From a virus: DNA of 64,000 bases. The stretch is taken from the IMG/VR virus record IMGVR_UViG_3300021077_000115, positions 302,064 to 366,063 of that record; one strand, given 5' to 3'. Both the position numbers and the translations under genes were made by a program. Below are positions 7,024-58,767 of this stretch, one piece after another. A model generated the notes under the pieces. The model had not been told where the DNA came from. It made no database searches and saw only the letters and a program-made list of their open reading frames with translations. Position 1 is the stretch's first letter. Each line of letters opens with the position of its first letter.

Positions 7024-9096
7024 TTATCTCCTTCCGGTTGCTCGCTGTCTATTCAGCGCCTCATCTTCTTGTTGTATTTGAACCTTAATCATTTCATTGA
7101 ATACCTTATGGTCTCCTAAATCAATAGCTAGGTTTACATTCATATCCTTAAAACTATGCTCAACACCTGAGGGGTTTGTTGTTGCATTATCGCCAAGCGT
7201 TGGTACTGTCGGCAACGTTATCTTGTGTACATCTGGGAGAGATGGAAGACCAAGATCTGACCGATGTCCTGGGGCTATATTAGAAACTCCGGCTTCTGCC
7301 CCTGGAGGTGGCTGATGTATCATTGTATTCTGTGTCGGTGAGGTTGCAGCAGCGTGTTTGCCACCAGATAACATAGAAAAGAAATCGTTCTTAATGCCTT
7401 CTCCAGCCCCAGCCTTTACATTGAAAGCATTCCCCATCATCTCTCCCCAGTCTGGGTTTTGCTGTTGACTGCGTTCTTTACCATGGGAAAGCATCTCAAC
7501 TCCGGCATGCATTGCACCGCCTCTATTATCTCTAATACTAGAAAGCCCCATATTTTCAGCGATTGCTCCTAAGTACTTATCGACCTCTTTGAACTCAGTA
7601 TTATAAAACTTATCCTGTCTCAGACGAGCAACTTCCAATGTCTGATGAATTTTCATCATTGTAGTTTGCGTTTGCTCTTGAAGGCTAGCTCCCTTTCCAA
7701 GCTGTCTTTCTAGCGCCAATCCCTTTTCACCTTCAGCGGCACCTGGCTTCAACATATCCATTACACCAGTCTTCATGGCCTCTAAAATTCTATAAGCTTC
7801 CTCATCATTCTTAGCAATACCAGCAACACCAGTTAGATATTGCATTTGCTTATACAACTCTCCAGCAAGAGCCGGATTATCAACGGCATCTTTCCTGGTA
7901 AGAACTGGTCCTCCAAATTGGCTTTGCATTGCCGTCATTGTCTTCTTTACTACCTCATCCATGTGTCCAGTCGCAATAAGCTCATCAATTTGAAACTTAC
8001 CAGCCAAGCCACCAGGGCCTCCAGTAGCTCCTGATATAAAGGCCTTCTTGGCTGTATCCATTTTTTCTATACCTTCACCAACACTAGTAATTACTTCCTT
8101 CATAGCCTCTGGGCTAATCTTACTGTCTGCGAATGCCCTATCAAACGCATTTACAAAATTAGTAGTTGCATTGGTGTTGTCGCCTAACATCTTGAAGCTA
8201 CCAGCAATGTTTAATACTGTCTGATTGAAACTCTCCATTCGGAGCTTAGAATCACCAGCTTTGTCGTGCATGTATGCCAGTGCCTCAGTGGCATCTTTCT
8301 CACTAGTGCCAAGGCGCGTATACATATCAGCTACTTGTTTTGCTGCCTCTAGCTCATTCATTTTGGCAGCGGCTGCCATTTGTGACACTCTTACAGTTTG
8401 TTCAGTATCACTCAATGATCCCGGAATTGAAGAAAGGGCTTTATTCAATTCCATTATAGAAGCAACTGTGTGCCCAGTTTCAGAAGCCGCCTTGATAGAC
8501 ATGTTTACGTAGCCCATATAAGCTTCGCTCATATCTTTGAATCTTTCACCCGATTGATCGGTAACGTCAGCAGCTCGTCCTTGAGCTAGAGACATACTAA
8601 TCAATTCTCTTTCCAAGCTAATTACTCGATCTCTCCCTTCCAAAACAGCATTTGAAAAGTTCATTATCTTGGAGTTGCTTCCGAATATATTATTCAATAC
8701 TGGCGAAATACTCTTGAAGGCCGTTGTGATTTTTTCTCCAGCTTCTAAGCCAGATTCTCCCAACTTACCCATTCCAGTAATGTTTTTATCAATTACCCCA
8801 AGCAAATCAAAGGTTCCCTCCATTACCCCAAGCAAATCAAAGGTTCCCTCCTTTACTTTCTGCCCAACAGATGTAAGAGACGTAAAACTGCTGAATAAAT
8901 TTTGAGCGGCTTCTGCTAGCTGATGTATATGATCAGCGCCTTCTTTCCCTACATTTTTGAGTATGTCTGAAAATTTTACTGTAACTCCAGACAGGCCCTC
9001 GAATCTCTTGGCAAATTCACTCACAGCCTCCAAGGTCTTTCCCCCAAGAGCTTCAGCGAACTTTTTTAGATTCTCAAGAGAAATTGTTTCATCCAT
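7024..9096 (-). CDS. Putative tail tape measure protein (690 aa, alpha-helical, low complexity) carrying an in-frame 10-aa tandem duplication.
   Basis: It sits directly after the chaperone pair, which is the canonical position. The protein contains the duplicated peptide EGTFDLLGVM/EGTFDLLGVI. Its start is coupled to the previous stop as TAATG at 9094-9098. Confidence 0.5.
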   Translation of the reverse strand: MDETISLENLKKFAEALGGKTLEAVSEFAKRFEGLSGVTVKFSDILKNVGKEGADHIHQLAEAAQNLFSSFTSLTSVGQKVKEGTFDLLGVMEGTFDLLGVIDKNITGMGKLGESGLEAGEKITTAFKSISPVLNNIFGSNSKIMNFSNAVLEGRDRVISLERELISMSLAQGRAADVTDQSGERFKDMSEAYMGYVNMSIKAASETGHTVASIMELNKALSSIPGSLSDTEQTVRVSQMAAAAKMNELEAAKQVADMYTRLGTSEKDATEALAYMHDKAGDSKLRMESFNQTVLNIAGSFKMLGDNTNATTNFVNAFDRAFADSKISPEAMKEVITSVGEGIEKMDTAKKAFISGATGGPGGLAGKFQIDELIATGHMDEVVKKTMTAMQSQFGGPVLTRKDAVDNPALAGELYKQMQYLTGVAGIAKNDEEAYRILEAMKTGVMDMLKPGAAEGEKGLALERQLGKGASLQEQTQTTMMKIHQTLEVARLRQDKFYNTEFKEVDKYLGAIAENMGLSSIRDNRGGAMHAGVEMLSHGKERSQQQNPDWGEMMGNAFNVKAGAGEGIKNDFFSMLSGGKHAAATSPTQNTMIHQPPPGAEAGVSNIAPGHRSDLGLPSLPDVHKITLPTVPTLGDNATTNPSGVEHSFKDMNVNLAIDLGDHKVFNEMIKVQIQQEDEALNRQRATGRR
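8792..8851 (-). repeat. Exact 30-bp in-frame tandem duplication in the tape-measure-like gene.
   Basis: ATTACCCCAAGCAAATCAAAGGTTCCCTCC occurs twice back to back. It encodes EGTFDLLGVM/EGTFDLLGVI. Confidence 0.9.
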
Positions 9097-19905: not shown

Positions 19906-21720
19906 TTATATTCGAATAAACTCAAAATCTCCCCAATTGTTATTACTAACAAACATTTGAGTAATAATACCTGAATCTGAAACTCCAGCAGATGCCCAAA
20001 CCTGCACACCAAATGCACCAGGTGATGACTGCGCTTGCCAATAAATAGGAATCGTAACATATTCAAGTGCAGTCGCTGCTATTTGAAGAGTAAAGTCAGC
20101 AACATCAACTGCATCTTCATAAACTCTAATATTAAGCAAAATAGTACCGGAGGTTACATTAACCTTGAAATATATATTTCCTCTAATAATATCACCAGTA
20201 AGTACACCTGCCCAAGCAACATTTACAAAATTAGCATCAGTATCTTGTATTTGTATATATCCACCAGTGTTACTCACGGTAAAATTAATTCCATTAGTCG
20301 GAAAACCTGATTGAGCCGCAACTGTTGGTTGTTGAATAACATTTCCGCCGGAAAGACGAGTTAGAATTGTATCTAATCCCTGCGAAAAAAGAACGCCGCC
20401 ATTAACAAATAAATAAACGCCAGACGGAGCTGTAACCGGAACAGCAGCGCTTTCTGTTATCTGCAGCGTACTACCAGCAAAACTAACTTTCCCAAGATTT
20501 GAGTTTATGTTTACGTTACCATCGCCACTAAGATTGACACTGAATCCAGCGTTCAAATTTAAGTCTCCACCAATTCCGGTATTGCTATTTTGAGCTTGAA
20601 TAGTTAATGGTTGACCAGTGGCTAATGAAACTTGAGTAGTATCTTGAGATATTGTTGGGGTAACATCATCTGCACTAAATATGACGTTAGATATGATATC
20701 ACCTAAAAATGATATCCCTCCACCAGGCGAACTATATATATAAACATTTCCAGCCACATTGGTGTTCGGGTTATACCCAGACTCTAGCCACAAATTACCA
20801 GGGCTTCCACCTGGGAAATGTGGTGCACCATTGATAATTGACTGAGCCCTAATAAACATATCAGTGGCAATTTCTACATCATGGTCCCCTTGCGATAATA
20901 GAGCCGGATAAGCCTTATCAAACATCAGGCCAGTAGCAATAACATCAACAATACCTGGATAGCTAGTTAGATATACATTTCCTTTTTGGCCATTAAGAGT
21001 ATCTCCAGATTCAAGAAATAAATTGCTAGGAGATCCAGAAGTATTCGTATTTCTCTGAGAAACGATGCGTAAATCGTTAGCTGCTCCTGAAGTGCTAATG
21101 TCGGCTTGTGTTATAACCGGATCAATAACAGAACTATTGAATTGTAAAATAGGCGAAGTCAAATCAATTGGAGCATCTCCACTTATCAAACGTAAAGTTC
21201 CCCAATTGGCCGATGTTGAAATATTAGTGCCAGAAGCCAGCCATAATTCACCACCAGTACCTGAGAAAACAGAGTCTAAATTACTTTGTGCTTGAATTAG
21301 AAAATATGGAGCCCCACCAGGATAATTAGCAGAATCTTGAGATATTAATGGATACGCAGCACTAGCATCAAATATCAAACCAGAATATCCTCCATCATAG
21401 CTTATCTTGAGAGGCGATGGCTCAATATCATTAGTAGTTGTGAACTCAATATCATTAGTAGTTGTGAACATCGGAATTGATCCGGGGTTCGTGTCGATAC
21501 TCCACGGTGTTCCAAGAGTCACAACATTTCCAAGCGTAATTAATAGGTTGTACAAATCAACCAACGCTTGTTGAACGTTTCCTGAATAAATCTCAGAGAT
21601 ATTGCTGGCTGGATGAATCCAATCCCCGCCGGTCACGTGGGCATTAAAGTCCTGCTTAGCCGTAGCGGAAAATCCAGCTTGAATAGTCCGATTAGAACCT
21701 ATGAATCTAGTCCTTGCCAT
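19906..21720 (-). CDS. Tail fibre protein (604 aa) carrying an in-frame 8-aa tandem duplication.
   Basis: The protein contains FTTTNDIE twice, arising from an exact 24-bp tandem repeat at 21421-21468. Composition is Ser/Gly/Asn-rich and fibre-like. Confidence 0.55.
   Translation of the reverse strand: MARTRFIGSNRTIQAGFSATAKQDFNAHVTGGDWIHPASNISEIYSGNVQQALVDLYNLLITLGNVVTLGTPWSIDTNPGSIPMFTTTNDIEFTTTNDIEPSPLKISYDGGYSGLIFDASAAYPLISQDSANYPGGAPYFLIQAQSNLDSVFSGTGGELWLASGTNISTSANWGTLRLISGDAPIDLTSPILQFNSSVIDPVITQADISTSGAANDLRIVSQRNTNTSGSPSNLFLESGDTLNGQKGNVYLTSYPGIVDVIATGLMFDKAYPALLSQGDHDVEIATDMFIRAQSIINGAPHFPGGSPGNLWLESGYNPNTNVAGNVYIYSSPGGGISFLGDIISNVIFSADDVTPTISQDTTQVSLATGQPLTIQAQNSNTGIGGDLNLNAGFSVNLSGDGNVNINSNLGKVSFAGSTLQITESAAVPVTAPSGVYLFVNGGVLFSQGLDTILTRLSGGNVIQQPTVAAQSGFPTNGINFTVSNTGGYIQIQDTDANFVNVAWAGVLTGDIIRGNIYFKVNVTSGTILLNIRVYEDAVDVADFTLQIAATALEYVTIPIYWQAQSSPGAFGVQVWASAGVSDSGIITQMFVSNNNWGDFEFIRI
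21421..21468 (-). repeat. Exact 24-bp in-frame tandem duplication in fibre gene 19906..21720.
   Basis: CTCAATATCATTAGTAGTTGTGAA occurs twice. It encodes FTTTNDIE twice. Confidence 0.9.
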
Positions 21721-26968: not shown

Positions 26969-29900
26969 TCAATACAGCGAGCTAAGTCCAGTATATAGTT
27001 CGGTTGCTTCGCCAAGCACATCAGCTTGTGTTGGAGTTTTAATCATCAATCGTCGTACAGACATATCTCCAGTTGATTGGCCACCAAAATGTCCAGCATT
27101 TATATATAAACGATCTACGCCAATTAAAGTACCTCCGAAATCATTCACTATAGATGTTCCTGATGGATCAATTTTCCAACAATGAGTGCCATCAGCAGCA
27201 TAAACAGCATATTGTAGGGTAGTGTCTGCTACAATTGTATTTCCTATAACAGTTTCAACGCTGCCTCCTTGGCCATAACGGATAGCTAATAGAGTAGTAC
27301 CGCTTTGCGCCAACGTAAAGCTCTGAGCAATACCAGAATCAATCTGGCCTAAATAAATTGTATTCCCAGCTTCTGTAACACCAGTCCACCACATAATACC
27401 AATTATAAATGGTGGTGTACTGCTTCCGCCATATACTCCCCAATGATAGCCATCAATCAAACTAAGAATCTTACCAGGAGCCATTGTAGCTATGCGTCGG
27501 CCTCCAACAGGATCTGTTGTCATTTGAGGTGTGCTAGTAGCAGTAAGCACCGCAGTGCCCTCACGACTTGCCCATGATGTAATCGTGGTACCAGTCAATG
27601 ATACCCCATGTTCCATATCCCAATAACCACCAGTACTCCACGTTCCACGTTGTGGCAGATCCGGTTCAATGATAGCAAGTCGTGCTGATTGTTGATGCCT
27701 GACACGCCAAGCCTCTCGACCAATTTCAACACATTGAGGTGCTGAATAATGTATCTGCCACAGCGTGCGATCTCCACCATCCAATCGCGTTAGATATGTA
27801 CCAGGAACTGTTGCGGCAACCTGATCTTGTGCTGCGCGTACTGCATCAGAACTCATGTATGTCACAGTTGGTGTTGTGGTATTCGGGCCTAACCATTCAT
27901 TCAGACGATGAATTCCGAATTGAATATTCGCACCATATAATCCACGAATCCACGAAATAAGGGCAGTCAAATCTGCGGCATAGGTAGCGGCAAGTGTACC
28001 AATTGTATTTGCCTCTGCTTCTCCCTGGATCCATAGAGCGTCCGTGAACTCATATAGACTAGTACCAAGTGCAGCGAGTGCACCGGCCACAGTAGCCGGC
28101 AAATATACATAATCTGCACCGCTTGGCAACCAAGAAGTAATGGGTGTGCCGCCATGCCCACAATTAATTACAATAGCAGGAATATTATTTTTAACTGCCT
28201 CTGCCTGCCAACCTGTTCGTATGCCGGAGCCACTAGGGCCTGAAATTGGATCTGTATCCCATCCAGTCGTTGTAAGATATCCGCCATTGTCTCCTAGATA
28301 AAATGCATATCCAGGACGAGCTAGTATACCATTACCAACTAGTGTATTAGCGCCTGCCTTGATTGATACCGCGTTACTCTGACCAAAAACCAATGTAATT
28401 GGCCATTGTGTAGGTAAGTAAGCCATTGCACGCAACTCAGTACATGATACAGTTAATTGTGGAACTGTCCACGCTGATCCGAAATGCTCTGCCAAATTTT
28501 CAACAACTGATCTTGCATTACCACCAAACAGCGTTCTGCTCGTGAAAGTTGCCGTAGTTGATGTGGCCATCACTCCACCAGCCGCCAAAGTTCCATCAAT
28601 ATATAAGGAGACTGAACTTGGGCCCGCAACAAGCTGCAGACATACCGGGACTGGTGCAACTGGTTGGGTTGTTAATTGAGTGACAGTGGCTCCGGCATCA
28701 TTGGTTCGAGTGATAGACCAGACTCCAGTTGGATCGACACTCACTGCAAGACGGCTTGTCGTGCCATTGAGTGAGTATACCTGTCGCGCAGTACTAGTTG
28801 GGCTATGCTCTCGAACCCAAATACACATTTCGATTGTAGCTAATGTACAAGATGGTATTGAGTAGGTTAGAGCACATGAATTACCATATCCTTCAACAAG
28901 TGCCGAATGACCAAACCAAATATCAGGTGAGAGTACAGGGCAGTAGCCATCAGTCCCCTGGGCCAGGATTAAATCAGTACTACCACGAGCAGGAGTAATA
29001 TAGGATACTTTATCTTGTTGTAAATGCACATTAGATACTGTAATTACTGGGCCAGTTAGAGGAAATCTAGATGCGCCTCTGGTGCCTATATCACACAACT
29101 GCCCTTCAGCAACATTAACTGGAATAAGATTCGTTTCATAAATAACGTCAATCCATCCATCAGTTCTCGCACTAAAGCTGTATCCATTATGATATCCAGA
29201 TGGAGTTGTTAATTCATAAATTGTATAAGAAGTATCGCTACTTGGATATCTTAAACTTTGCAATGAAGGCAATTCAATAAATTGTGTAGATGAAAATTCA
29301 AAAAATAGATGTTTTGCGTCGTATTCAGCTCCCGGTAAATACGAGAATGTAGCCCGTATCCAGCCAACGCTAGCTAGATTTCCCGGAGCAAGTCTAGCAA
29401 GACGACTACTGGTACCTGATTCAGTCAATGCAGATGCACGCGGAATTCCATCTTTATCAAATAAACTATTGACCGCAGTAAGCCCAGTCAATGTCCACGT
29501 GCCAGCAACTGGATTATTTCCAGACAGCGGCTTAATCTGAACCGTCTGCGTCTGAGAAAAATCAAAGAGCGTTGATGTGTACTCAGCTAGAGTGGCAATG
29601 GGCGGTGGGCCTTGCCATTCTGCCTCTGTTGCACTTATAGCAGTCAAAACTTGCCCAGGAGTTGGTGCCGCTGAGGCAGATATAGAAACTACCGTAGTAG
29701 CAGTCTGTAATCCAGTAGCGTATTGAGCCACACCAATTGGTGTATGTACATGAGACGCATTAGTATTATCCTGTAGATATAGAGTTACAACGGTTGTGCC
29801 GCTTCCGCCAATTTTTATAGCTTTATATTTGATTACCAATCTATCTGTTGATGTTACAGGGAACATTCCTTCGAACGGATTTGAATTATATAAAGTAGAC

Positions 29901-30472
29901 GTATTACCAGTAATAATTGGTGTTGTTGTAGAAAATAAATAAGTATCGATATTACTAAGGTTACGAGAATATCCATCAATTTCTACAACTACATATCCAT
30001 CATTATTATCGACGCTTATAAAAGTATCAAATGCCCATTCTCCCTGTTGCACAAAAGGCTCTCCAATTGGTACTTCTGAAACGAACGTACCAAGGACTAC
30101 CGTTTGTCCAGAAGATATTGGTGACTTTAGAGTAATTTCAGAGCCAGGAGTATATTGACTAGTTGGAGTTAGCTGATAACCATCAGGCAACGCATACCCA
30201 TCAAGATAGAATACCTCTCCTGCTGCAATGCTTGGAACTGGTGTCTGCCATTGAGCAGATGTGCCATTTATAGCCGTTACAACTTGTCCAACGGTTGGCG
30301 CTGTCGCTGAAGAAACCGAAACTACGGTAGATGATGTTCTGATTCCGGAGGAAATCCGATCATTTGAAAGGCGAGAGTCGTTTTGTGAAACATAACCATC
30401 CGACATACTATCAAGTTTGGCGCTATCTTCAACGGTCATGAATCCAAAATCATCAGTGAATTTCTTTAACAT
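26969..30472 (-). CDS. Long tail fibre protein (1167 aa) with an internal ~40-aa protein repeat and an N-terminal anchor domain shared with the broken tailspike.
   Basis: The N-terminus FTDDFGFMTVEDSAKLDSMSDGYVSQNDS aligns with 41547..41873. The internal repeat is TSSTVVSVSSATAPTVGQVVTAI... versus TATTVVSISASAAPTPGQVLTAI.... Confidence 0.6.
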   Translation of the reverse strand: MLKKFTDDFGFMTVEDSAKLDSMSDGYVSQNDSRLSNDRISSGIRTSSTVVSVSSATAPTVGQVVTAINGTSAQWQTPVPSIAAGEVFYLDGYALPDGYQLTPTSQYTPGSEITLKSPISSGQTVVLGTFVSEVPIGEPFVQQGEWAFDTFISVDNNDGYVVVEIDGYSRNLSNIDTYLFSTTTPIITGNTSTLYNSNPFEGMFPVTSTDRLVIKYKAIKIGGSGTTVVTLYLQDNTNASHVHTPIGVAQYATGLQTATTVVSISASAAPTPGQVLTAISATEAEWQGPPPIATLAEYTSTLFDFSQTQTVQIKPLSGNNPVAGTWTLTGLTAVNSLFDKDGIPRASALTESGTSSRLARLAPGNLASVGWIRATFSYLPGAEYDAKHLFFEFSSTQFIELPSLQSLRYPSSDTSYTIYELTTPSGYHNGYSFSARTDGWIDVIYETNLIPVNVAEGQLCDIGTRGASRFPLTGPVITVSNVHLQQDKVSYITPARGSTDLILAQGTDGYCPVLSPDIWFGHSALVEGYGNSCALTYSIPSCTLATIEMCIWVREHSPTSTARQVYSLNGTTSRLAVSVDPTGVWSITRTNDAGATVTQLTTQPVAPVPVCLQLVAGPSSVSLYIDGTLAAGGVMATSTTATFTSRTLFGGNARSVVENLAEHFGSAWTVPQLTVSCTELRAMAYLPTQWPITLVFGQSNAVSIKAGANTLVGNGILARPGYAFYLGDNGGYLTTTGWDTDPISGPSGSGIRTGWQAEAVKNNIPAIVINCGHGGTPITSWLPSGADYVYLPATVAGALAALGTSLYEFTDALWIQGEAEANTIGTLAATYAADLTALISWIRGLYGANIQFGIHRLNEWLGPNTTTPTVTYMSSDAVRAAQDQVAATVPGTYLTRLDGGDRTLWQIHYSAPQCVEIGREAWRVRHQQSARLAIIEPDLPQRGTWSTGGYWDMEHGVSLTGTTITSWASREGTAVLTATSTPQMTTDPVGGRRIATMAPGKILSLIDGYHWGVYGGSSTPPFIIGIMWWTGVTEAGNTIYLGQIDSGIAQSFTLAQSGTTLLAIRYGQGGSVETVIGNTIVADTTLQYAVYAADGTHCWKIDPSGTSIVNDFGGTLIGVDRLYINAGHFGGQSTGDMSVRRLMIKTPTQADVLGEATELYTGLSSLY

Positions 30473-32805: not shown

Positions 32806-33260
32806 AAAAATACCTTCATTGATTCAGCTTTGGATTTGAAAGGAGGGTTGGCCAAACCAGGGATATTGCTTTTACCATTCTCTTCATATACCAATGTACG
32901 TTTATATGGCAATTTAGTAGATGGAAAAATTCCAATGATCTTGATCTGCGGAGGGGCTGCGTGAATTAGATTATGACAATTACTACAGATGATTGCGATA
33001 TTCATCTCGTGATTGCTAGTATCCGGGTCCGTCCGCTCTACAATATGATGCTTGTGAAGAACAGCTGTATTATTCTCTTCACATATCTCACATACACTAG
33101 GAACCAGCCTTACTTTCTTACGCCTTCCCATATTATGTGAATATATCAGGCTTTGGACAATATTTAACGATGGCCTGAGCTGCAACTCTAGCCTCTCTAT
33201 CTCCGTAATCTCCCCATTGGGAAATTCGAATATTGTCCTGAGAACTTCCACCATAACCAA
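32802..33260 (-). CDS. Compact HNH endonuclease. The true start is probably the ATG at about 33131 (MGRRKKVRL...), giving about 109 aa.
   Basis: Contains CEICEENNTAVLHKHHIVERTD...NHEMNIAIICSNCHNLIH, i.e. a CxxC...HH...N...CxxC HNH core. The listed start overlaps the cysteine desulfurase gene by 128 nt. Confidence 0.65.
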   Translation of the reverse strand: MVMVEVLRTIFEFPNGEITEIERLELQLRPSLNIVQSLIYSHNMGRRKKVRLVPSVCEICEENNTAVLHKHHIVERTDPDTSNHEMNIAIICSNCHNLIHAAPPQIKIIGIFPSTKLPYKRTLVYEENGKSNIPGLANPPFKSKAESMKVFL

Positions 33261-34221
33261 GCGCCGTCATGATTGGATTCGTATTTGAGTGCAAAGATCC
33301 ACAAGCAGAACCAAGGCCCACAAATATTCCTTCAGCTTCCAATTGAGCCATTACATGTGGACCCATCTTTTTCCCGATGTTCAAGAAAGTAGCATGTGGA
33401 ACTCTAGTTGAATTCTCGCCAATTATTTCAATACCAATTGAACTTACTGCTGATTCAATTATAGAGCGAAATGTCAATGCCCTATGATATCTTGGCTGTA
33501 ATGTCTTGATAGCTTCTTCTAATGCCACAGAAGCGGCTATAATCATTCCAGCATCAGGTGTTCCTGGCCGATCAAAGTAATATCTACTTCCAGTCCCAAA
33601 TTCTCTCCACCATTTATTATCTCTTATATATAAGAAACCAACATTTACAGGACCACCAAATTTATGAGCCCCAAATGCAGCTATCATCAAATTTGGTATA
33701 CTAGAAACATTAACTGGAATCTTACCAAGTGATTGGCTCATATCACAAAAGAATGGAACCTTAATGTTCTCTATATCTTGTATTGTGCCAGTTTCATTCT
33801 GTACATGAATACATATAAAAGCAGACTTTTCAGGAGGTGTAAATGTACAAGCTACAATTCCGTCTTTATTTACAAATAAATCATTGTTACCAAAGAGTTC
33901 TCTAGCTTTTATTGCCACTGATTTATGTTCGATTGTAGAACAGTATACATTCTTGAAATTCTGTTCGCGTAGAAGTTCCAGGCCCCATTCGCAGGCTTGA
34001 GTGCAGGACGAAGTAAATATGATTTGATTGGGATTTTCTGCGCCGATCAATTTGGCAATTTTGGTTCTAGCTGCCTCAATTTCAGAAGCTGCTTGCCGTC
34101 CTGGCATTGAAATTGACATAGCATGGCCATGTCCCCCAATGGACTTATTGAAGTTTATGTATGCTTCAAGAGCTTTTGGATGAAGTGGAATATGAGCATT
34201 CGAGTCAAGAAATAATTGCAT
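33133..34221 (-). CDS. PLP-dependent cysteine desulfurase of the class-V aminotransferase family (NifS/IscS/DndA-like).
   Basis: AAFGAHKFGGPVNVGF carries the PLP-lysine HK motif. GLGSACGS resembles the SxxxS/active-Cys loop. Length is about 360 aa and the N-terminus is class-V aminotransferase-like. Confidence 0.75.
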   Translation of the reverse strand: MQLFLDSNAHIPLHPKALEAYINFNKSIGGHGHAMSISMPGRQAASEIEAARTKIAKLIGAENPNQIIFTSSCTQACEWGLELLREQNFKNVYCSTIEHKSVAIKARELFGNNDLFVNKDGIVACTFTPPEKSAFICIHVQNETGTIQDIENIKVPFFCDMSQSLGKIPVNVSSIPNLMIAAFGAHKFGGPVNVGFLYIRDNKWWREFGTGSRYYFDRPGTPDAGMIIAASVALEEAIKTLQPRYHRALTFRSIIESAVSSIGIEIIGENSTRVPHATFLNIGKKMGPHVMAQLEAEGIFVGLGSACGSLHSNTNPIMTALGYGGSSQDNIRISQWGDYGDREARVAAQAIVKYCPKPDIFT

Positions 34222-36448: not shown

Positions 36449-38400
<1,952 letters not shown>

Positions 38401-38790
38401 TTACGTTCCTATATGCCAAATATGAACGTCTACAGTACCAATACCAGCAAAATATATCTCATTCTCTCCTCTTGGTCCAAAGTCAAGAGTTTGCCCAGAG
38501 CTAATACGCCCATGGATATTGTAACCAGAGAAAGAATATATTACGTCTGTTCCGCTAACACCAACCAACATTATTCTACGAGCCCCGCGAAAAGCTGTAC
38601 GAACTTGAGGTGTTATTGGGAAAAGCGGATAGTAACCGTCATAGCCATCATAAGGTGTTCCTATCGGCGCAACATATCCATCACCCCATGTACCACTTGT
38701 TACAGATGTGTTTGTACTTACGACCTTAAAAAAATTGTAATCCTTTCCTGTATTAACTGGCTTGCCCATTATAACCTCAAATACATACAA
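38401..38790 (-). CDS. Small DGY-rich fibre-associated protein. The probable true start is the ATG at 38769, preceded by GAGGT.
   Basis: Contains GDGYVAPIGTPYDGYDGYYPL. The SD reads tttGAGGTtataATG. Confidence 0.45.
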   Translation of the reverse strand: MYVFEVIMGKPVNTGKDYNFFKVVSTNTSVTSGTWGDGYVAPIGTPYDGYDGYYPLFPITPQVRTAFRGARRIMLVGVSGTDVIYSFSGYNIHGRISSGQTLDFGPRGENEIYFAGIGTVDVHIWHIGT

Positions 38791-38851
38791 AAATATACCA
38801 TTGAGCCTTCTAAAACTTAAATATCAAGCTAGAACATCCATATCTATTATA

Positions 38852-39685
38852 TCATGGCAAGCTCTGCCAAATTATATAGACAGTTACAGCTCCAGTTGTC
38901 GGAGAATTAGTTTCTGTTACATTTGCGAATATCGCCTGAGATGCTGGGTATATCGCTTCAAATCCAGTTGACTGAGACATATCACTGCCTAATGATGTTA
39001 GCGCAAATCCGCCAACAATAGATCCTACCGCTACAGATGGTATTATTGTTTGAGAAACAACTATTTGCTGCCCACCAGAAGTGGAGCCTATACTAATCGC
39101 TGAGCTAGGACTACCGCCACCAGTAATTGCTGTCTTCACTCTCAAATCAATTGATATCAATTTCCATCGACCGGAACCAGATGGACTAGAAGTCCTAGTA
39201 TCAATAAGAGTATTGGCAGTAGTTGTAAGATCAATATCAAAAGAAACAGCTATATATGGAGATGGAGCCGCTTGACCAAGACGAGTATCTATTCTTGCAA
39301 TATGTTCGCCAATATATCCGTCTATCGGAGGTGCATAGTTAACTGGTAAATATGATAGCTCTATAAAGTATCCATCAACAGGATCACTTCCACCAGCCTC
39401 ATGGGTGCTTGCGTGTGTTGCTGGTGTTCTTGAATTTACATAACCTATCGTCGCATAACCATCGATAGCTAAAAGAATTTCATTATCCACAGCCTCTACC
39501 ATTTCCAGGGCGGCTGAATACCCATCCAATACAGCTCCTAGGCCATCAAGTTTAACCTTATCTGCGGCTGACATTTCTCCATTAGCTAATTGAGAAGAAA
39601 GAAGACTTGGATCTTTGTAATTTATTGTACCCATAAAACCCCTCGCACATGCTGGCGTAGCCGCTGGTTTATCAACAACATACAA
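38852..39685 (-). CDS. Tail fibre protein (277 aa) carrying the same conserved module as the collagen-like fibre.
   Basis: HEAGGSDPVDGYFIELSYLPVNYAPPIDGYIGEHIARIDTRLG aligns with [43 protein letters not shown]. The listed start is TTG. Confidence 0.55.
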   Translation of the reverse strand: MYVVDKPAATPACARGFMGTINYKDPSLLSSQLANGEMSAADKVKLDGLGAVLDGYSAALEMVEAVDNEILLAIDGYATIGYVNSRTPATHASTHEAGGSDPVDGYFIELSYLPVNYAPPIDGYIGEHIARIDTRLGQAAPSPYIAVSFDIDLTTTANTLIDTRTSSPSGSGRWKLISIDLRVKTAITGGGSPSSAISIGSTSGGQQIVVSQTIIPSVAVGSIVGGFALTSLGSDMSQSTGFEAIYPASQAIFANVTETNSPTTGAVTVYIIWQSLP

Positions 39686-39705
39686 AAATATCCGTTGCGC
39701 TTCAT

Positions 39706-41873
39706 TTATTGAGCATAGATGCTGTATACATCATTATTTCCTGATTCAGCCACAAGCGATACAGCATTGAGTCCAGTAAGTGATAGGTTTGAAATTACGA
39801 AGGAAGCTCCATTGCCTGTATATGACAAGGTGTTATCAGCTGTAGCCATCCAGATTGTGGCTACATTTGTGGCCATATCTGGTGCAAGCATGACACAATC
39901 TACAGAACCATCAGCATTAACCGTTGCATAGCCTGAAGCCCCACCAACAACTGTACCTAAGGCACCGGTGATCAGGTTGAAGTTGGCAAATCCAGAGCCT
40001 CCACCTACTGCTAAAGCCACCCAATTTCTACCGGTTGGCTTGATACGCACTCGGAAGACAACTGGTCCTCTCACATAACCTGGTATTGTACCAACCACAG
40101 TAGATATATCATGACCGCCAGTGCTATTATCCTCTACCAGTGTTGTGTTGTTCCAAGAAGCGACTCCTGCATCAATAAGGAATGAAAGAGTGCCTGTCAC
40201 AGCCATTGTGCTTGCTACAAGCGAATAGCTTGGTATTCCATGAGCCGAGCCACCAGGAGCCGTTCTCGCCAAAGATACAGAGCTATTAGGGGTAGTCCAA
40301 GGCGCTGGAAAGAATACTGGCGTTGTTCCGTTTAGCGTGACCGAACCACTATTAGTGTAGCGGAACTGTGTTCCCGCCGGATTTGGTGGCGTTACTAAAT
40401 TAACTTTACCGTATGTAACAATATTTCCTGAACCTATAGAGTTAATATTTTCAGGCACAGCTAACTGTCCTCTAACGTTTCTGATGTCTAAACTGTGGCC
40501 CGACACTCCAGTAGTAACCAAGGTAGTTGAACTATCCACAATTAATGCATCGACAATATTATCTTTGCTGATACAAGCATCACCATAGATGATACCTGCT
40601 GAGATTCCGGACACAAGCAACTTCCCAAAGTGGTTTCTGTTGCACCCAAGAGTTCCATTTGCACCCAAGACTACGAGCGCTGTAACTAGACCTGGAGTTT
40701 GTGCACTCGCATTCAAGTCTGAGATATCATTATCACAGAAATCAGAGCCAGTCCAAAACACGCCTGCAGTACCAATTACATTGACAGCCTTGAGTCCGCG
40801 AATCGTATTTCGATGGCACCCACACTCATCTGCTGGGATATCAATATTGATCGAAGTTGCGATAAATGGTCCACAGCAGTTCTCACCAGTGGCCCCATCA
40901 ATAGTTGAATCTCAAGTAGTATTTAACCATACCGTGTATCCAATATTCTCACTCTTGACATTGCGAACAACAGCACCACGTTGCCCTTCGATAGCAAACC
41001 CAGAACGATTCGAATCAGTGCCATCCAACCCTATCGTAATAACATTATCAACCAAGTTATCTCTACCACTAATATCAAAGCCAACTAGTGAGGTACTGGA
41101 TGTTCCTGCTGTTTGCTGGATAATTCCAGGACCAATTACTGAGCATCTCCAAACAGAGATCAACTCAATGAATCGATTGTCCGCATAGGAACCATCAAAA
41201 GCACATAAAATTTTGGCATTATTCAACTTTACATTGAAATTGATTACTGGTGAATATTTATAAATGTTACTTGCAGGTATGGAGAACAATACAGGGGCAT
41301 CCAAATTGACAGTTGTGCCAACAACCGATATTGCCTGAAACGAGACCCGTGCACCTTTGTTCGTACTGATCCAAAAATAATCTCCAGCTACCAATGGTGT
41401 ACCAGACCATGTAACTGTGAGACTATTAACTCTAGCCGCAGTAGCTCCAATAGATCCTATTGTGGCGGGAGTTCCTGGGTTGGCTACAATCGGGCAAGTT
41501 CCAAGACCAAAAGTAGTAGTTGTAATTATCGTATTTCCATTAAGATCTAGCGTAATATTAGAACGATATTTCCATTAAGATCTAGCGTAATATTAGAACG
41601 AGCAGCGATAATGGTGTGATTACAAATATAAGGAAGTGTAGATTTTCTCAACTTTACGGTAGATCCATAAGGTGCCGCTTGTACAATTGTATTGATTGCA
41701 GACCAGTCATCTGTTGTCGAACCATCAATTGGAGGCCCAGCCCAAACGATTACGGAATCATTTCTAGAAACATAACCATCTGATATGTTATTAAGCTTGA
41801 TGCTATCTTCCGCTTGAAAGAAACCAAAAGATTCTTCCTTCACATGTCCCGGGAATTTCTGGAATTTAGACAA
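39706..41873 (-). pseudogene. Disrupted tailspike or tail-fibre gene (about 710 codons if repaired) with an N-terminal anchor domain and a beta-helix-like body. It is broken by a 35-bp tandem duplication (frameshift) and an in-frame TGA.
   Basis: Three co-directional ORFs span it: 41547..41873, 40912..41394 and 39706..40761. The first two differ in frame by +2, which equals 35 mod 3. The last two are in the same frame and are separated only by TGA at 40912-40914. The N-terminus matches the 1167-aa fibre. Confidence 0.55.
41532..41601 (-). repeat. Exact 35-bp tandem duplication (2 copies) inside the tailspike gene, causing a +2 frameshift.
   Basis: TATTTCCATTAAGATCTAGCGTAATATTAGAACGA occurs at 41532-41566 and again at 41567-41601. 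Confidence 0.9.
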
Positions 41874-41943
41874 GTTAACCTCAAATATTTAGCTCCATAT
41901 ATTTACTTACAACAATGATATGCAAAAATATTCGTTGCATAAA

Positions 41944-41975
41944 CAAAAAGCCCCGGTTTGCACCGAGGCTCTCTG
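41944..41975 (-). terminator. Rho-independent terminator immediately downstream of the putative major capsid gene.
   Basis: On the minus strand: GCCTCGG-tgcaaa-CCGGGGC followed by TTTTTGTTT. One G.U wobble, extendable to about 10 bp. Confidence 0.6.
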
Positions 41976-42002
41976 TATTCATTTTGAACTAACTAGCTAG
42001 CA

Positions 42003-43049
42003 TTATCCGACGATTGTTGACTTGCGAGAAGCAGCAACGGCGCGTGGGTTCACGATACCGATACCAATCTCTTCCGACACAACCCATCCTAGTTTTAACT
42101 GTTTTGGTTCATCAGCTGGGATAACTTCGATGTCCTGACGGATTGGAAGCACACCAACGAACTCTGGGTCAGAGGCACCGTAGACTGTTCCTGGTGGAAC
42201 GATCTTCGAAACCATAATGTCAGCGCCCCAGATGTGAGCATACAGACCTGTCTGAAGAATCTCACGCTGCGTAACTGGATCAATTTCACCAGCCGAGGTT
42301 CCGGAAGATGCCCAGTTAAGGATGTCCGTAAACTCATTGATGTTCATGAAGTACTTCGTTGTTACAAGGTCCCAACGATCAATCTGAACCTTGATCTCAA
42401 CCAAGTCTCTCTTCAACAGACCGCTGTCTGTGATGTCCTGCAACGTGTTTTCAACACTCGATGCTGCGTCGATAGCCGCAAAGATGTTTGCATCTTCTTG
42501 AGCCATCAATTCTTGACGGGCCTTTTGAACGGCACGGTCAATAACGTTGAATCGACGACGACGAACCTCAGAGATACGAACTGTTGGGTTCGAATAAAGC
42601 TCGAACGTTGGCACAACGATACGATCACCGAACACACGAGACTCACCACCGGTACCATTGCTGGAAATGACGGTAGCTGCTACGTCAATATCACGCTCAT
42701 ACTTCGGGTCAACGCCTTGTGGAAGAGGATCAACCACCAACAGACGACGGGCAATTCCCTGATAATCCAAGTTACGACGAATTGGGTTCGCCATAGCCTG
42801 AGCAAGAGCAAGCTTTCCTTCCTGTGTCATAATCGCACGAGCAATAAGCTCATCGCGCTTTTCGTCATTCAAACCTGGTTGGCCCGAAAGAGCCATATTT
42901 GAAGGCTGGCCCTCTTCGAGGATCGCAGCGTACTTAACTAGCGTATTCAATGCATCCTTTACGGATGTGGCATTCATACCACCACGGGTATCAAATAAAG
43001 ACATATATAATCTCCTAATGTTTGTTTGTAAGCTGCCAAAATCCATCAA
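42003..43049 (-). CDS. Putative major capsid protein (348 aa). The track start is TTG at 43049 and ATG is the second codon (43046..43044).
   Basis: A GC-rich hairpin lies upstream and a strong intrinsic terminator downstream, consistent with a highly expressed gene. Size and composition fit a small HK97-fold coat protein, and it follows a decoration-like gene (lambda-like D/E order). No diagnostic motif was recognised. Confidence 0.45.
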   Translation of the reverse strand: MMDFGSLQTNIRRLYMSLFDTRGGMNATSVKDALNTLVKYAAILEEGQPSNMALSGQPGLNDEKRDELIARAIMTQEGKLALAQAMANPIRRNLDYQGIARRLLVVDPLPQGVDPKYERDIDVAATVISSNGTGGESRVFGDRIVVPTFELYSNPTVRISEVRRRRFNVIDRAVQKARQELMAQEDANIFAAIDAASSVENTLQDITDSGLLKRDLVEIKVQIDRWDLVTTKYFMNINEFTDILNWASSGTSAGEIDPVTQREILQTGLYAHIWGADIMVSKIVPPGTVYGASDPEFVGVLPIRQDIEVIPADEPKQLKLGWVVSEEIGIGIVNPRAVAASRKSTIVG

Positions 43050-54230: not shown

Positions 54231-55286
54231 TTATGCTAAAAAACCTTTAGCCAACTCCTCTGCTAACTTCTGTAAAGATGTTTTCTTGCTCGCAACACTA
54301 CGAGTCAATTCATCAAGATTAGGCTCTTCTGCCTCTGCATTGCCATCCTCTCCGATACCCTCAACCAATGATTCAATATCTGGATCATCAAGATCAAGCT
54401 CACCTTCACTAGCACCTTCAGCTTCAGCAGGCTGATCAAGAATAGACCAATCACCTTCGCCCTCAGCAGGCTCTTCAAGTTCTTGCATCAATTTCTCGAA
54501 CTCTTTGTTGTCATCTGAATCTTCGGCCATACCCATATCGCCGCAATCAGCATCGCCGCAATCAATAACTTCGGAGGCATCATCGGACGCTTTTTTGGTA
54601 GTCTTCTTTTTGTCGTCCTTCTTGTCGTCTTTGCCCTTTGGCTTGGCCTTATCGTCTTTCTTGTCGTCCTTCTTCTTCAACCAAGGAGGTAGCCCTTTGG
54701 CATCATTCTTGTCGCCTTTTTTAGCATCTTCCTTTTTCTTGGCATCTTCCTTCTTTTTTTCGGCGGCCTTCTTCTCTTCTTCCTTCTTCTTGGCTGCGGC
54801 TTCTTCCTTCTTGTCTTTGCCCTTGCCTTTTTCTTCCTTCTTCTTGGCAGCGGTTTTTACAAGGTTATCAAGAGCTAACAATGTGAGAGCTGATGCCTTA
54901 GAGAGTCCTGCCTCGTCCAAAATTTCGGAAGCGTTGCACAAACTCTTAATACAAGATTCGTACTTGGTCATAGCCTTCTTTTTTGCAGCTTTGGCCTTAG
55001 CCTTCTCTTTCTCGGCCTTCTCCTTTGCCTTCTCTTTTTCAGCTTTGGCCTTGGCCTTTTCCTTGTCAGCCTTTGCCTTCTCTTTTTCAGCTTCGGCCTT
55101 AGCCTTCGCCTTTTCTTTGGCAGCCTTTTCCTTATCGTCTTCTTTCTTTGCAGCCATCTTTGTGAATTGTGGTTCTGCCTTTGTGAAAATAGACTGATAT
55201 ACTGGGCTGGCCATAATACCATTCATCTCTGTAGCAATATCAAATTTAGACATATTTACCTCATTATGGATGGGCGGGGCCTTCAA
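54231..55286 (-). CDS. Highly charged K/E/A-rich low-complexity protein with an acidic C-terminus; a scaffold-like or internal-protein candidate. The probable true start is the ATG at 55251 (MSKFDIATEM...).
   Basis: Contains (KEKAKAKAE)n-like tracts and ...DCGDADCGDMGMAEDSDD...GEGD.... The TTG start at 55286 would read through a GC hairpin. A GAGG SD precedes the ATG at 55251. Confidence 0.5.
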   Translation of the reverse strand: MKAPPIHNEVNMSKFDIATEMNGIMASPVYQSIFTKAEPQFTKMAAKKEDDKEKAAKEKAKAKAEAEKEKAKADKEKAKAKAEKEKAKEKAEKEKAKAKAAKKKAMTKYESCIKSLCNASEILDEAGLSKASALTLLALDNLVKTAAKKKEEKGKGKDKKEEAAAKKKEEEKKAAEKKKEDAKKKEDAKKGDKNDAKGLPPWLKKKDDKKDDKAKPKGKDDKKDDKKKTTKKASDDASEVIDCGDADCGDMGMAEDSDDNKEFEKLMQELEEPAEGEGDWSILDQPAEAEGASEGELDLDDPDIESLVEGIGEDGNAEAEEPNLDELTRSVASKKTSLQKLAEELAKGFLA

Positions 55287-55305: not shown

Positions 55306-58300
55306 TTAGAACTTCAAACCTTTTGACTCAAAGTAGTTATCAAAGAAACTCTTGATATCTTGCTCGCCTTCTTGTGCAACCTTGGCCATTGGTAGAATTA
55401 CTTCGCCTGAACTTAGAAGACCAACCATAGGAATGGAAGCCTGCTTGTTCATAGATGGTTGTCGTGCCAAAATATTCTTGATGCTCTCAAATCCCGCGTC
55501 ATTCCACTTCATAATGTCGTTGACTTGTGAATCAAGCTGACCCTCAGTAATCATGCCTTTAGCAATCATTTGATGGGCAACTTCATAAGCTCTCTTGATA
55601 CGTCCCTTGTAAGACTCAACTTCCTCAGCTTGCTTGGCTTTGGCATGTTCCTGTGTCAACTTGGTTGCGAAATCTTTACTTTCTGTATCGCCCTGACCAA
55701 ACAGTTCCTTCCAATATTTAACTGCTTCCGCGTCAACACCATGGGAAACCAACTTATCAACATCATCAGCCTTCATCTTGCCTTCTGCAACTAGAGCCTG
55801 AATCATCTCAGCTTGCTTACGTACACGAGGTGGCATATTGGCCAACTCAAGCATGTAGCTTTGAATATCCTTTGGCACATGGAATTCAGCACCTGGAACA
55901 TTTGGCTTTACATCCAAGTTACCGGCGTCAACTGCACTAACACTGCCACCTGGATGCGCATCGTTAGACAATTCATTAAACCCAAGCAAGCCCTTTTCAG
56001 CTAGCTTTATACGTGCCTGGGCACGCCCTTCTTTAGTTGATAGTTCCAAAGTTCCTCCTGCTGTTACTGTTACCTCTCCTAGTTGCTGAGTTGTTCCATC
56101 TGGAGTCTTCAACGACAACTTGGCATCTGCCTTATCCGAAGCTCCCTTGCCCTTGATGTTAGCTAACCAGCTATCGAATGTACCTCCGTCTTCCGCCGCA
56201 CCTTCATCAGCACATGGCAATTCACCAGTTGCTGCGTCTGCAGACTCTTCTTCAGCTCCATCCTTTGCATCGGCGCATTCTTCATCTTCTGCTCCGTCTT
56301 TTGCATCAGCGGCATCAGCACATTCCTCGGTTCCGTCAGCTGCATCTGCAGTCTCTTCGGTTTCTTCTTCCGAAGCGAAAATTGCGTCAAGAAGATCTTT
56401 TTCTGGATCTTTCTGTGAAGCGCGCTTCTCCAACTCAGCAGTTCCGTAAGCATACTTAACAACAGCCTCCATCAACTTACCAGCATCAACCAACATGGCC
56501 TTTGCATCTTTGACTGCCGAAATTGTTAGTGCGTTCAGATATTCACGCTGCTCTTCGGTCATAGAAGCATAAGTTTCCTTATAGACCCTCTTTGCTGTGT
56601 TGATTTCACGCATGTGCTTCGCCAAAGAAGTAATCGTCTCATCGACGCCCTCTTGCAACATACCATTCACGCGCTTACGCATTGACTGAAGTTGAGACGC
56701 GGTCTTTGGCCCTTCCGAGAACTCTGCATCACCTGCAGGCTCAACGTCTGGCATAGCATCTGCATCTTCAGAAACAGCACCACTGACCTTGTCACGAAGA
56801 TCACTAAGTTTGCCACCCATCTCATCAAACAAAGACTGAAGGTCATCGACGATTTCATCAGTATTCCCGCCCTTTCCGCCAACATTCTTTGGTGGCTCAA
56901 GTGGAGGAAGATCTGCGCCGCCTGCAGCACCATCGACTGGAGGAGCTGGAGGAGCAGCTGGAGCTGCTTGTGCGTTCTTTAATAGAGCGTCTGCTGTAGC
57001 CTGAAAGCCCTCGGTCTGAATGCGATTCAGCAATGACTTACCAAAACGCTCAGTAGCAACGGCGTCATAAAGAGACTCTGAATTACCCTTGGTAATTTGA
57101 TCAACAGAGGCGCGAAGAATTGCTTTATCATTAGCATAAACGACCCAGCTCGAAGCTGACTTATTGACACGGCCATCAGGAAGAGCAACCTTCTCAAAAC
57201 GAGCCTTCACCAACGAAGCACGAAGCAACTTCTCCTTCTCTTTCTCGTCGTCATCATAAAGACCTTCGACATCGCCAACGCCTGGGAATGGTTTTTCACC
57301 AACCATTTGCTTATCAAGCATACGGTCTTTCTCATTCAAAGGATCCTTTGAATATTGAACTTTACCTGGCTTTGGCTCTTCTGTGCCTAGGTAATATCCC
57401 TTGCTCTGCAGTTGTTCCTTTGCCTTCTTAAGAGCGGCTTCGCGGAACAATGCGCGCTCGTGCTCATCAGCTAAACGCTGAAGTTCTTTCTTTACCTTCT
57501 CGTCACCTGGGTACATACCCTCTTCGTCACCTGTGTTTGGGAAAGGAGCCGGACCATGTAAATTCTTGTCCATCAATCTCGCCTTCTCATTCAAAGGATC
57601 CTTTGAATATTGAGCCTGTCCCGGCTTTGGTTCTTCTGTACCTTGAAAATATGCATTCTTCTTTGTCATGGTTGGTTCCTCATTATTAGATACTACTCTA
57701 AGTAAATTCTCCTGTAGGCTAGCCAGTTTCGTCTGCGCTCCCAAAATTGCTCTCTGTAACTCTGAGGCGTAAGTTGGGAAAGCCTCAGGCGGATTTATCT
57801 GAGTCGATGGTTCTGCACCAGATTCTTCCATCGACCAGCTAGAGCGAGTTGGGCCAACCGCATCGCTCTCATCACTTTCATCAAAGTCATTGGCCATAGA
57901 TTCGATCTTGCCCATCAGACTTTGAAGGTCTTTCTGAATAGATGTCAAATCTTGCCTAGACAAACCTTTCTTTACTTCCAAATAATCTGAAAGTAACCCG
58001 GCAGCCTTAGCAATATCACTGGCAATAATATGCTTAACCTTGGCTTTTGGGTCTGCTCCGGAAACAACTAATGACAGTTCAATCGGAGTCAAATCTAGGT
58101 TGATTTCACCGTAGCAGCTCTTGTTCTTCATATGTTGGCAGAAATCTTTTTCAGTTCTGGCGACTCTGTGGCAGTCGGAACATACAGCTCGCCCTACGGC
58201 TGTACCCATCGAAACATTGTTGGCAACCCCTGTCTTAACCTTATCGGCCAAGTCACCATAATTTTTCGCATCAAGAGCACAAAGAGCAATTACTCTCTTT

Positions 58301-58767
58301 CTACGGTCATCATATACGGTGTCAACAATAACGCCTCGAATCTTATCAACCGACTGTGATTGATGATCGAGGCATAATGGACGACCGACCCAATTTTTAT
58401 ATGCTACTTTCAACTCTGCTTCTGGAAAGATGTCTCGGTTATTATTCCGATAAGGCATAAGGGTTTTTTCATTACAAACCCACTTTACACCGCCTTCCTT
58501 AGTAGATTCCCAAGCAGCTTCGACATCTTTTCCTTGTGATGTCTTCTTTGGGGTTCCATCATCATTAATGCAAGCTGCCTCAGCGGCATGCATCATCACG
58601 CAAGTAAAATATAAGAAGTCTTTTGCTTTTGGAGCGATAACCTTCAACTCTTGAGCAAACTTGTACATGCGGTTTTCAATATCCAAATCCATATCATCTG
58701 CCAATTTCTCAATTGGCTTGATATCCTCTGGTCTGATGAAAACCGATTCTCCTAGTTTAATAAGCAT
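55306..58767 (-). CDS. Large (1153 aa) protein with an N-terminal putative prohead-protease-like domain (carrying a Cys4 cluster), followed by a long acidic coiled or scaffold-like region with roughly 70-aa tandem repeats.
   Basis: The N-terminus contains ...RPLCLDHQ... and ...GVANNVSMGTAVGRAVCSDCHRVARTEKDFCQHMKNKSC.... Repeats are YFQGTEEPKPGQAQYSKDPLNEKARLMDKNLHGPAPFP... and YYLGTEEPKPGKVQYSKDPLNEKDRMLDKQMVGEKPFP.... The C-terminus is D/E/A-rich. The protease assignment is tentative. Confidence 0.45.
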   Translation of the reverse strand: MLIKLGESVFIRPEDIKPIEKLADDMDLDIENRMYKFAQELKVIAPKAKDFLYFTCVMMHAAEAACINDDGTPKKTSQGKDVEAAWESTKEGGVKWVCNEKTLMPYRNNNRDIFPEAELKVAYKNWVGRPLCLDHQSQSVDKIRGVIVDTVYDDRRKRVIALCALDAKNYGDLADKVKTGVANNVSMGTAVGRAVCSDCHRVARTEKDFCQHMKNKSCYGEINLDLTPIELSLVVSGADPKAKVKHIIASDIAKAAGLLSDYLEVKKGLSRQDLTSIQKDLQSLMGKIESMANDFDESDESDAVGPTRSSWSMEESGAEPSTQINPPEAFPTYASELQRAILGAQTKLASLQENLLRVVSNNEEPTMTKKNAYFQGTEEPKPGQAQYSKDPLNEKARLMDKNLHGPAPFPNTGDEEGMYPGDEKVKKELQRLADEHERALFREAALKKAKEQLQSKGYYLGTEEPKPGKVQYSKDPLNEKDRMLDKQMVGEKPFPGVGDVEGLYDDDEKEKEKLLRASLVKARFEKVALPDGRVNKSASSWVVYANDKAILRASVDQITKGNSESLYDAVATERFGKSLLNRIQTEGFQATADALLKNAQAAPAAPPAPPVDGAAGGADLPPLEPPKNVGGKGGNTDEIVDDLQSLFDEMGGKLSDLRDKVSGAVSEDADAMPDVEPAGDAEFSEGPKTASQLQSMRKRVNGMLQEGVDETITSLAKHMREINTAKRVYKETYASMTEEQREYLNALTISAVKDAKAMLVDAGKLMEAVVKYAYGTAELEKRASQKDPEKDLLDAIFASEEETEETADAADGTEECADAADAKDGAEDEECADAKDGAEEESADAATGELPCADEGAAEDGGTFDSWLANIKGKGASDKADAKLSLKTPDGTTQQLGEVTVTAGGTLELSTKEGRAQARIKLAEKGLLGFNELSNDAHPGGSVSAVDAGNLDVKPNVPGAEFHVPKDIQSYMLELANMPPRVRKQAEMIQALVAEGKMKADDVDKLVSHGVDAEAVKYWKELFGQGDTESKDFATKLTQEHAKAKQAEEVESYKGRIKRAYEVAHQMIAKGMITEGQLDSQVNDIMKWNDAGFESIKNILARQPSMNKQASIPMVGLLSSGEVILPMAKVAQEGEQDIKSFFDNYFESKGLKF

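Follow-up and report, generated by a model that had tools for sequence, protein, structure and literature searches.

Modular N-termini are the usual pattern of phage receptor-binding proteins, and in Campylobacter phages these proteins phase-vary by means of hypermutable polyG tracts. The β-helix fold is known from tailspikes and depolymerases such as the K5A KflA lyase (2x3h), the HK620 tailspike (2vji), gp12 of phi29 (3gq7) and the Klebsiella and Acinetobacter capsule depolymerases. Virion genes can also be lost by a simple frame-breaking mutation: In the prophage ST64B, a tail assembly gene is frameshifted, and this state is conserved between isolates (PMC7067206). The present work deals with a split gene for a predicted tailspike that is located in a window of 64,000 nucleotides, i. 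e. positions 302,064 to 366,063 of the IMG/VR virus record IMGVR_UViG_3300021077_000115 (all positions given here are those of the window; see Table 1). Most probably, this locus is a recently pseudogenised and dispensable tailspike gene in a phage that has several fibres. As in ST64B, a virion gene would have been made non-functional by a simple frame-breaking mutation; the lesion is different, however, as it consists of a 35-bp duplication plus a nonsense codon, and it affects a single fibre out of several in a jumbo phage of lytic type, the genome of which appears to be complete, so that the phage is probably still viable. With the Campylobacter phages, the locus shares a frame-breaking change of repeat length in a receptor-binding gene that could in principle revert, but there is no homopolymer or short-unit tract, just one two-copy duplication of 35 bp and an independent stop codon. 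Finally, the likeness to the β-helix tailspikes and depolymerases lies in the fold, whereas the sequence identity is only 10-15% and the present copy is disrupted.

Table 1. Positions of the features of the split tailspike locus in the 64-kb window (ORF, open reading frame).
Feature	Position	Strand	Description
Three ORFs of the split gene	41547..41873, 40912..41394, 39706..40761	minus	
5' fragment	41547..41873	minus	start TTG 41873; native codons 1-102, followed by IVLILR (6 codons out of frame) and the stop TAG 41547-41549
N-terminal motif FGFxxxEDSxKLxxxSDGYVSxNDS	41748..41834	minus	residues 14-42; common to the N-terminus of the 1167-aa fibre 26969-30472
35-bp tandem duplication	41532..41601		shifts the frame by +35 nt within the conserved SNITLDLNGNTI motif, at the first β-helix rungs
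Peptide across the duplication junction			...LDLNGNIVLILR
Middle fragment	40915..41531	minus	native codons 103-309, β-helix rungs; frame 2 nt off that of the 5' fragment
In-frame TGA	40912..40914	minus	codon 310 of the repaired gene, mid β-helix
3' fragment	39706..40911	minus	codons 311-710 and TAA 39706-39708; remaining β-helix and C-terminal β-sandwich-like region (~490-710)
Promoter-like motif ATATTTTTGCATAT	41918..41931	minus	upstream of the tailspike gene
Further copies of the promoter-like motif	39678-39691, 38783-38796, 37011-37024	minus	before the next three fibre-module genes
Intrinsic-terminator-like hairpin and U-run	41940..41976	minus	after the head gene 42003-43049; -24.5 kcal/mol, z -6.6

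A first-pass annotation of the window had read three consecutive ORFs as the remains of a tailspike gene, with a 35-bp tandem duplication and an in-frame TGA as the causes of its inactivation. The coordinates and the arithmetic of this annotation were all reproduced, from the three ORFs and the break between the first two to the frame offset, the TGA and the stretch of open codons behind it. At the first break, Tandem Repeats Finder reported a single tandem array (period 35, 2.0 copies, 100% matches), the two copies of which (41567-41601 and 41532-41566) are identical, and neither flank extends the repeat. By chance, about 64000 x 4^-35 perfect tandem copies of 35 bp would be expected in 64 kb, a negligible number that leaves no room for coincidence. 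No microhomology at the borders of the duplication was seen by eye in the sequence. The offset between the first two ORFs is 479 nt (41873-41394), which equals 2 mod 3, and the same holds for 35. Removal of one copy in silico restores a frame of 2133 nt in which the TGA at 40912-40914 is the sole internal stop, with 50 open codons from there to the GTG at 40761. The middle frame is open from 41574, and the listed ORF 40912-41394 is only the portion after its first TTG; likewise, the listed ORF 39706-40761 is the portion of the 3' fragment after its first GTG. The TTG at 41394 and the GTG at 40761 thus only mark where a start-like codon first occurs behind a stop, and the two ORFs listed from them are fragments rather than genes. 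In an alignment of 14 sequences, the duplication falls into a conserved S-N-I-T-L-D-L-N-G-N-T-I block. In the column of the TGA, the residues of the homologues are Y, W, C or H (W in two of them), so that a change from TGG to TGA would be the simplest origin of the stop at codon 310.

Two more short tandem duplications are present in the window: one of 24 bp (x2.0, 100%) at 21421-21469 and one of 30 bp (x2.2, 97%) at 8792-8856. Both periods are multiples of three, and both arrays lie in intact minus-strand ORFs (19906-21720 and 7024-9096, respectively). Short tandem duplications thus seem to arise repeatedly in this genome, and only the one that is out of frame would have destroyed a gene.

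Are the two lesions present in the DNA? Further copies of the same phage were found via exact look-up of the neighbouring proteins in public assemblies. The Joint Genome Institute (JGI) contig Ga0495438_0000722 from sample 3300046484 matches window positions 50792-33104 without a gap and with a single mismatch at 49548, far from the gene. Both lesions are present in this contig, and the pieces had been called by JGI as products of 98, 160 and 351 aa, the first of them starting at the GTG at 41843. Among the Logan contigs of SRR13557794, which were built with k=31, one ends at window position 41572 and a 118-kb contig begins at 41561. Simulated k=31 unitigs break exactly at these two positions if the duplication is present, whereas a single copy gives no break in 23.7 kb. 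Since the ends of the Logan contigs match the simulated branch points, the k-mers of the duplication junction would be present in the raw reads of SRR13557794, independently of any assembler. The coincidence, to the base, of contig ends with the branch points of a duplication thus offers read-level evidence for a short tandem duplication without the reads. The TGA is located inside a Logan contig of the same run (L005) that is 100% identical to the window. The 351-aa product is also encoded on another Logan contig, which is 50-200 kb long. The assembly of a second sample with both lesions and the contig ends at the predicted branch points argue that both lesions are real, and a sequencing artefact at both sites, one of the options of the first-pass annotation, is effectively excluded. 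Exact DNA patterns for a single-copy allele, searched beside the duplication in IMG/VR and in another form in the JGI metagenomes, gave no match, the JGI negative being a weak one as that collection evidently does not contain sample 3300046484.

The repaired protein of 710 aa has no significant match in Pfam, PHROG or among PDB sequences, and three of its homologues also lack a Pfam or PHROG match. Moreover, neither a megablast search with the region nor a tblastn search with the repaired protein against 50,697 phage records gave a match. Relatives were found in metagenomes: Three homologues are 40-51% identical across 94% of the length of the repaired protein, and when 1.84 billion cluster representatives were searched exhaustively, 15 proteins scored below 1e-30, nine of them full-length (678-933 aa). 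The only fragments identical to the window were the three pieces of the locus itself, and an intact 710-aa allele was not present among the cluster representatives. A profile search of a word-indexed protein database added no family members, and a search for related loci in IMG/VR and the GTDB genome collection yielded no confirmed relatives and no clue to the host. In the 14-sequence alignment none of the homologues is split, and none has a repeat or a stop at the sites of the lesions. The homologues are located in unrelated smaller phages and have unrelated N-termini. Judged by these comparisons, this is a small and undescribed family of β-helix tailspikes that comes from metagenomes only, counts about 10 intact members, has no Pfam or PHROG model and appears to have exchangeable N-termini.

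The assignment as a tailspike rests on the fold rather than on a sequence family. AlphaFold, run on the repaired protein with the 14-sequence alignment, gave a confident model (predicted local distance difference test score, pLDDT, 86; predicted template modelling score, pTM, 0.82) in which the N-terminal residues 1-39 are disordered (pLDDT below 50) and are followed by a long run of short strands and a β-rich C-terminal part. In a Foldseek comparison of this model with viral models, tailspikes and depolymerases rank first. The model thus supports the view that the repaired protein is a tailspike or depolymerase with a right-handed parallel β-helix (pectin-lyase-like) body, as the first-pass annotation had proposed, and this predicted tailspike would probably have had a receptor-binding, polysaccharide-degrading activity. 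That annotation had also assigned to the protein the N-terminal anchor domain of the 1167-aa fibre encoded at 26969-30472. The likeness is real, but it is confined to a motif of 27-29 residues (17/29 identical, pairwise E 2e-7) and does not cover a whole domain. This motif is disordered in the model; it is a putative phage-specific attachment peptide and may serve both proteins for docking, and the unrelated N-termini of the homologues are consistent with module exchange. At the other end of the protein, the C-terminal ~120-150 aa (residues ~540-690, window ~39770-40250) match more than 60 otherwise unrelated proteins with E values of 1e-9 to 1e-3; ten of these were scanned, and none has a Pfam model in this stretch, which looks like an uncharacterised, widely shuffled β-rich (putative binding) module.

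What can be made from the gene in its present state? Upstream of the tailspike gene, there is a promoter-like motif, (CAAYGR)ATATTTTTGYATRT, that occurs four times in the same orientation as compared to 0.43 expected matches, and none of 100 shuffled sequences reached this number. A scan of 38700-42200 for the sigma-70 consensus found no site at the three copies of the motif in that range, and the motif is probably a phage-specific, perhaps late, promoter. With the terminator-like hairpin following the head gene, the tailspike gene would form a separate transcription unit. The TTG at 41873 is preceded by a GAGG-type Shine-Dalgarno sequence 8 nt upstream. No Shine-Dalgarno sequence is present at the TTG at 41394 or the GTG at 40761, and the downstream pieces also have no ATG start; the first start-like codon of the middle piece is found 153 nt beyond the stop of the stub. 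The 5' and middle frames overlap by 28 nt, and a -1 programmed frameshift was rejected as there is no X_XXY_YYZ slippery heptamer in this overlap. At the second site, TGA seems to be an ordinary stop: It ends eight of the 42 large ORFs in the window with normal spacing to the next gene, and, apart from the tailspike gene with its TGA at 40912-40914, no gene of the window has to be read through an in-frame TGA. No tRNA genes, including suppressor tRNA genes, were found in the window. For the slippage- or readthrough-controlled tailspike considered by the first-pass annotation, there is thus no supporting signal. With no slippery site, no downstream Shine-Dalgarno sequence and an ordinary TGA stop, we infer that the maximal product is a stub of about 108 aa.

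How old is the inactivation? Five intact homologues have 103 invariant columns, and the broken copy has kept 92 of them (89%); the intact members of the family, scored in the same way, keep 75-89%. No additional stops are present in the 710 codons, and there is no sign of relaxed constraint. As the invariant residues are kept as in intact members and no further stops have accumulated, the inactivation would be recent, or the gene may still be used occasionally. The description as a decaying receptor-binding gene in the first-pass annotation is therefore the best reading, with the reservation that decay has only just begun.

Taken together, we propose the following scenario: The ancestral protein of about 710 aa would have consisted of a short phage-specific attachment peptide, a right-handed parallel β-helix and a C-terminal β-rich domain. 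Two independent null mutations would then have hit the gene: (i) behind codon 102, the tandem duplication of 35 bp, with a shift of the frame and termination six codons further on, and (ii) the nonsense TGA at codon 310. With the promoter-like motif and the ribosome-binding site that belong to the gene, only the N-terminal stub could be translated, while the downstream 600 codons would be left without translation signals of their own. The loss was presumably tolerated because of the other fibre genes of the phage (the 1167-aa esterase fibre, the collagen-like fibre and others), e. g. after a change of the host surface glycan. The gene inactivation itself is an ordinary event; frameshifted virion genes are already known.

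The best of the alternatives is a reversible off-switch, in which the duplication collapses by replication slippage or unequal recombination and tRNA-Trp allows a low level of UGA readthrough, so that the locus would serve as a bet-hedging device for host range. Tandem duplications are intrinsically unstable, and several observations weigh against a dead gene and for such a switch, or limit how far the evidence for a dead gene can be carried. The pristine state of the 710 codons, of the promoter-like motif and of the two repeat copies is also expected of a gene that is still used and switchable, and the W at the TGA column in two homologues would suit readthrough by tRNA-Trp. The scan for tRNA genes covered the 64-kb window only, and a suppressor tRNA could be encoded elsewhere in the genome. 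Moreover, a pure duplication and a mixture of genomes with one and two copies yield the same k=31 graph; genomes that have just one copy, or a sense codon in place of the TGA, may exist as a minority. Finally, the datasets are near-identical (0-1 mismatch over 17 kb) and may come from related samples; the notion that the lesions are fixed in the population rests on few lineages. We nevertheless regard the off-switch as unlikely: Two independent lesions would both have to be overcome, a G follows the TGA, and no known readthrough context or structure is present. The absence of repeat and stop from every aligned family member gives no sign of a selected mechanism, the search of the cluster representatives did not recover the intact allele, and the other short tandem duplications of the genome are simply in frame, which fits random mutation. 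Somewhat less likely still is the stricter form of this idea, a silent spare receptor-binding gene for which a few genomes drop one copy, tRNA-Trp misreads the UGA, and a few functional tailspikes are displayed.

It is improbable, by a further small step, that the pieces are functional as they stand, with the stub of ~108 aa occupying the attachment site on the virion or with internal initiation giving rise to a split tailspike. The stub does keep the motif shared with the 1167-aa fibre, the promoter-like motif and the Shine-Dalgarno sequence, and all fragments are open. However, the second and third pieces lack a ribosome-binding site and an ATG, the distance from the stub stop to the start-like codon of the middle piece is long, and no homologue is split. 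In the predicted structure, the breaks at ~102 and ~310 would lie within a continuous β-helix and not at domain borders. That an error of assembly or sequencing, at one site or at both, hides an intact gene seems very improbable. Both a short tandem duplication and a single-base error are typical artefacts, and the support for the lesions comes from assembled contigs, but the JGI assembly of another sample has both lesions in a gap-free alignment, the breaks in the Logan contigs need junction k-mers in the reads, and one Logan contig contains the TGA, another the 351-aa product. The weakest idea, recoding of TGA to an amino acid in late genes with the duplication as the sole lesion, has in its favour the W, Y, C or H of the homologues at this column and the fact that stop-codon recoding occurs in some large uncultivated phages, but it is scarcely credible in view of the ordinary use of TGA as a terminator, the lack of any other gene that needs TGA readthrough and the lack of a suppressor tRNA in the window.

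We thus favour the recently inactivated gene, and its surroundings are those of a virion gene. All large ORFs in the window are on the minus strand, and the window corresponds to the virion module of a tailed phage. The tailspike locus is located directly downstream of the gene for the major head protein (42003-43049, minus strand; phrog_2522, E 2e-76), the best relative of which is the head protein of Bacillus phage G (53% identity). On the basis of this similarity, the source is an uncultivated jumbo phage distantly related to phage G. This relationship, together with GH25/PG_binding lysins encoded beside one of the homologues of the tailspike, makes Bacillota the probable hosts. The genes downstream of the tailspike gene encode a 277-aa protein and a fibre with collagen repeats (37042-38391); that of the 1167-aa fibre follows at a greater distance.

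Some of these neighbours deserve mention. Two domains were recognised in the 1167-aa fibre (26969-30472, minus strand): an SGNH domain of the sialate-O-acetylesterase (SASA) type (PF03629, E 3e-7) and, weakly, a ConA-like lectin domain. For the 277-aa ORF (38852-39685), the TTG given as its start overlaps the promoter-like motif; the true start is probably the ATG at 39634, which has a GAGGGG Shine-Dalgarno sequence, and the Logan gene call for this ORF gives a product of 260 aa. The protein of this ORF and the collagen-like fibre have a block 'HxxGGxDPxDGY...Y.PPI...IGEHIA.ID' in common. In the middle of the tail-fibre module, a class-V aminotransferase or cysteine-desulfurase-like protein is encoded (33133-34221, minus strand; PF00266, E 3.6e-28), an unusual site for an enzyme of metabolic type. 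At 55306-58767 (minus strand), a protein of 1153 aa matches the head-maturation-protease families phrog_18299 and phrog_2774 with its residues 108-216; it is far above the usual size of a prohead protease. The adjoining ORF 54231-55286 contains degenerate repeats of 27-54 bp.

The practical consequence of these results is that the 98-, 160- and 351-aa 'hypothetical proteins' of public assemblies are, on the reading preferred here, fragments of one dead gene, and they should be neither counted as genes nor used as family representatives. If the off-switch were true after all, a giant phage could in this way hold a receptor-binding gene in silent reserve. As a recently inactivated gene, the locus would instead be a snapshot of the loss of a receptor-binding gene in a phage-G-like jumbo phage, and the current view of phage biology is unchanged by it.
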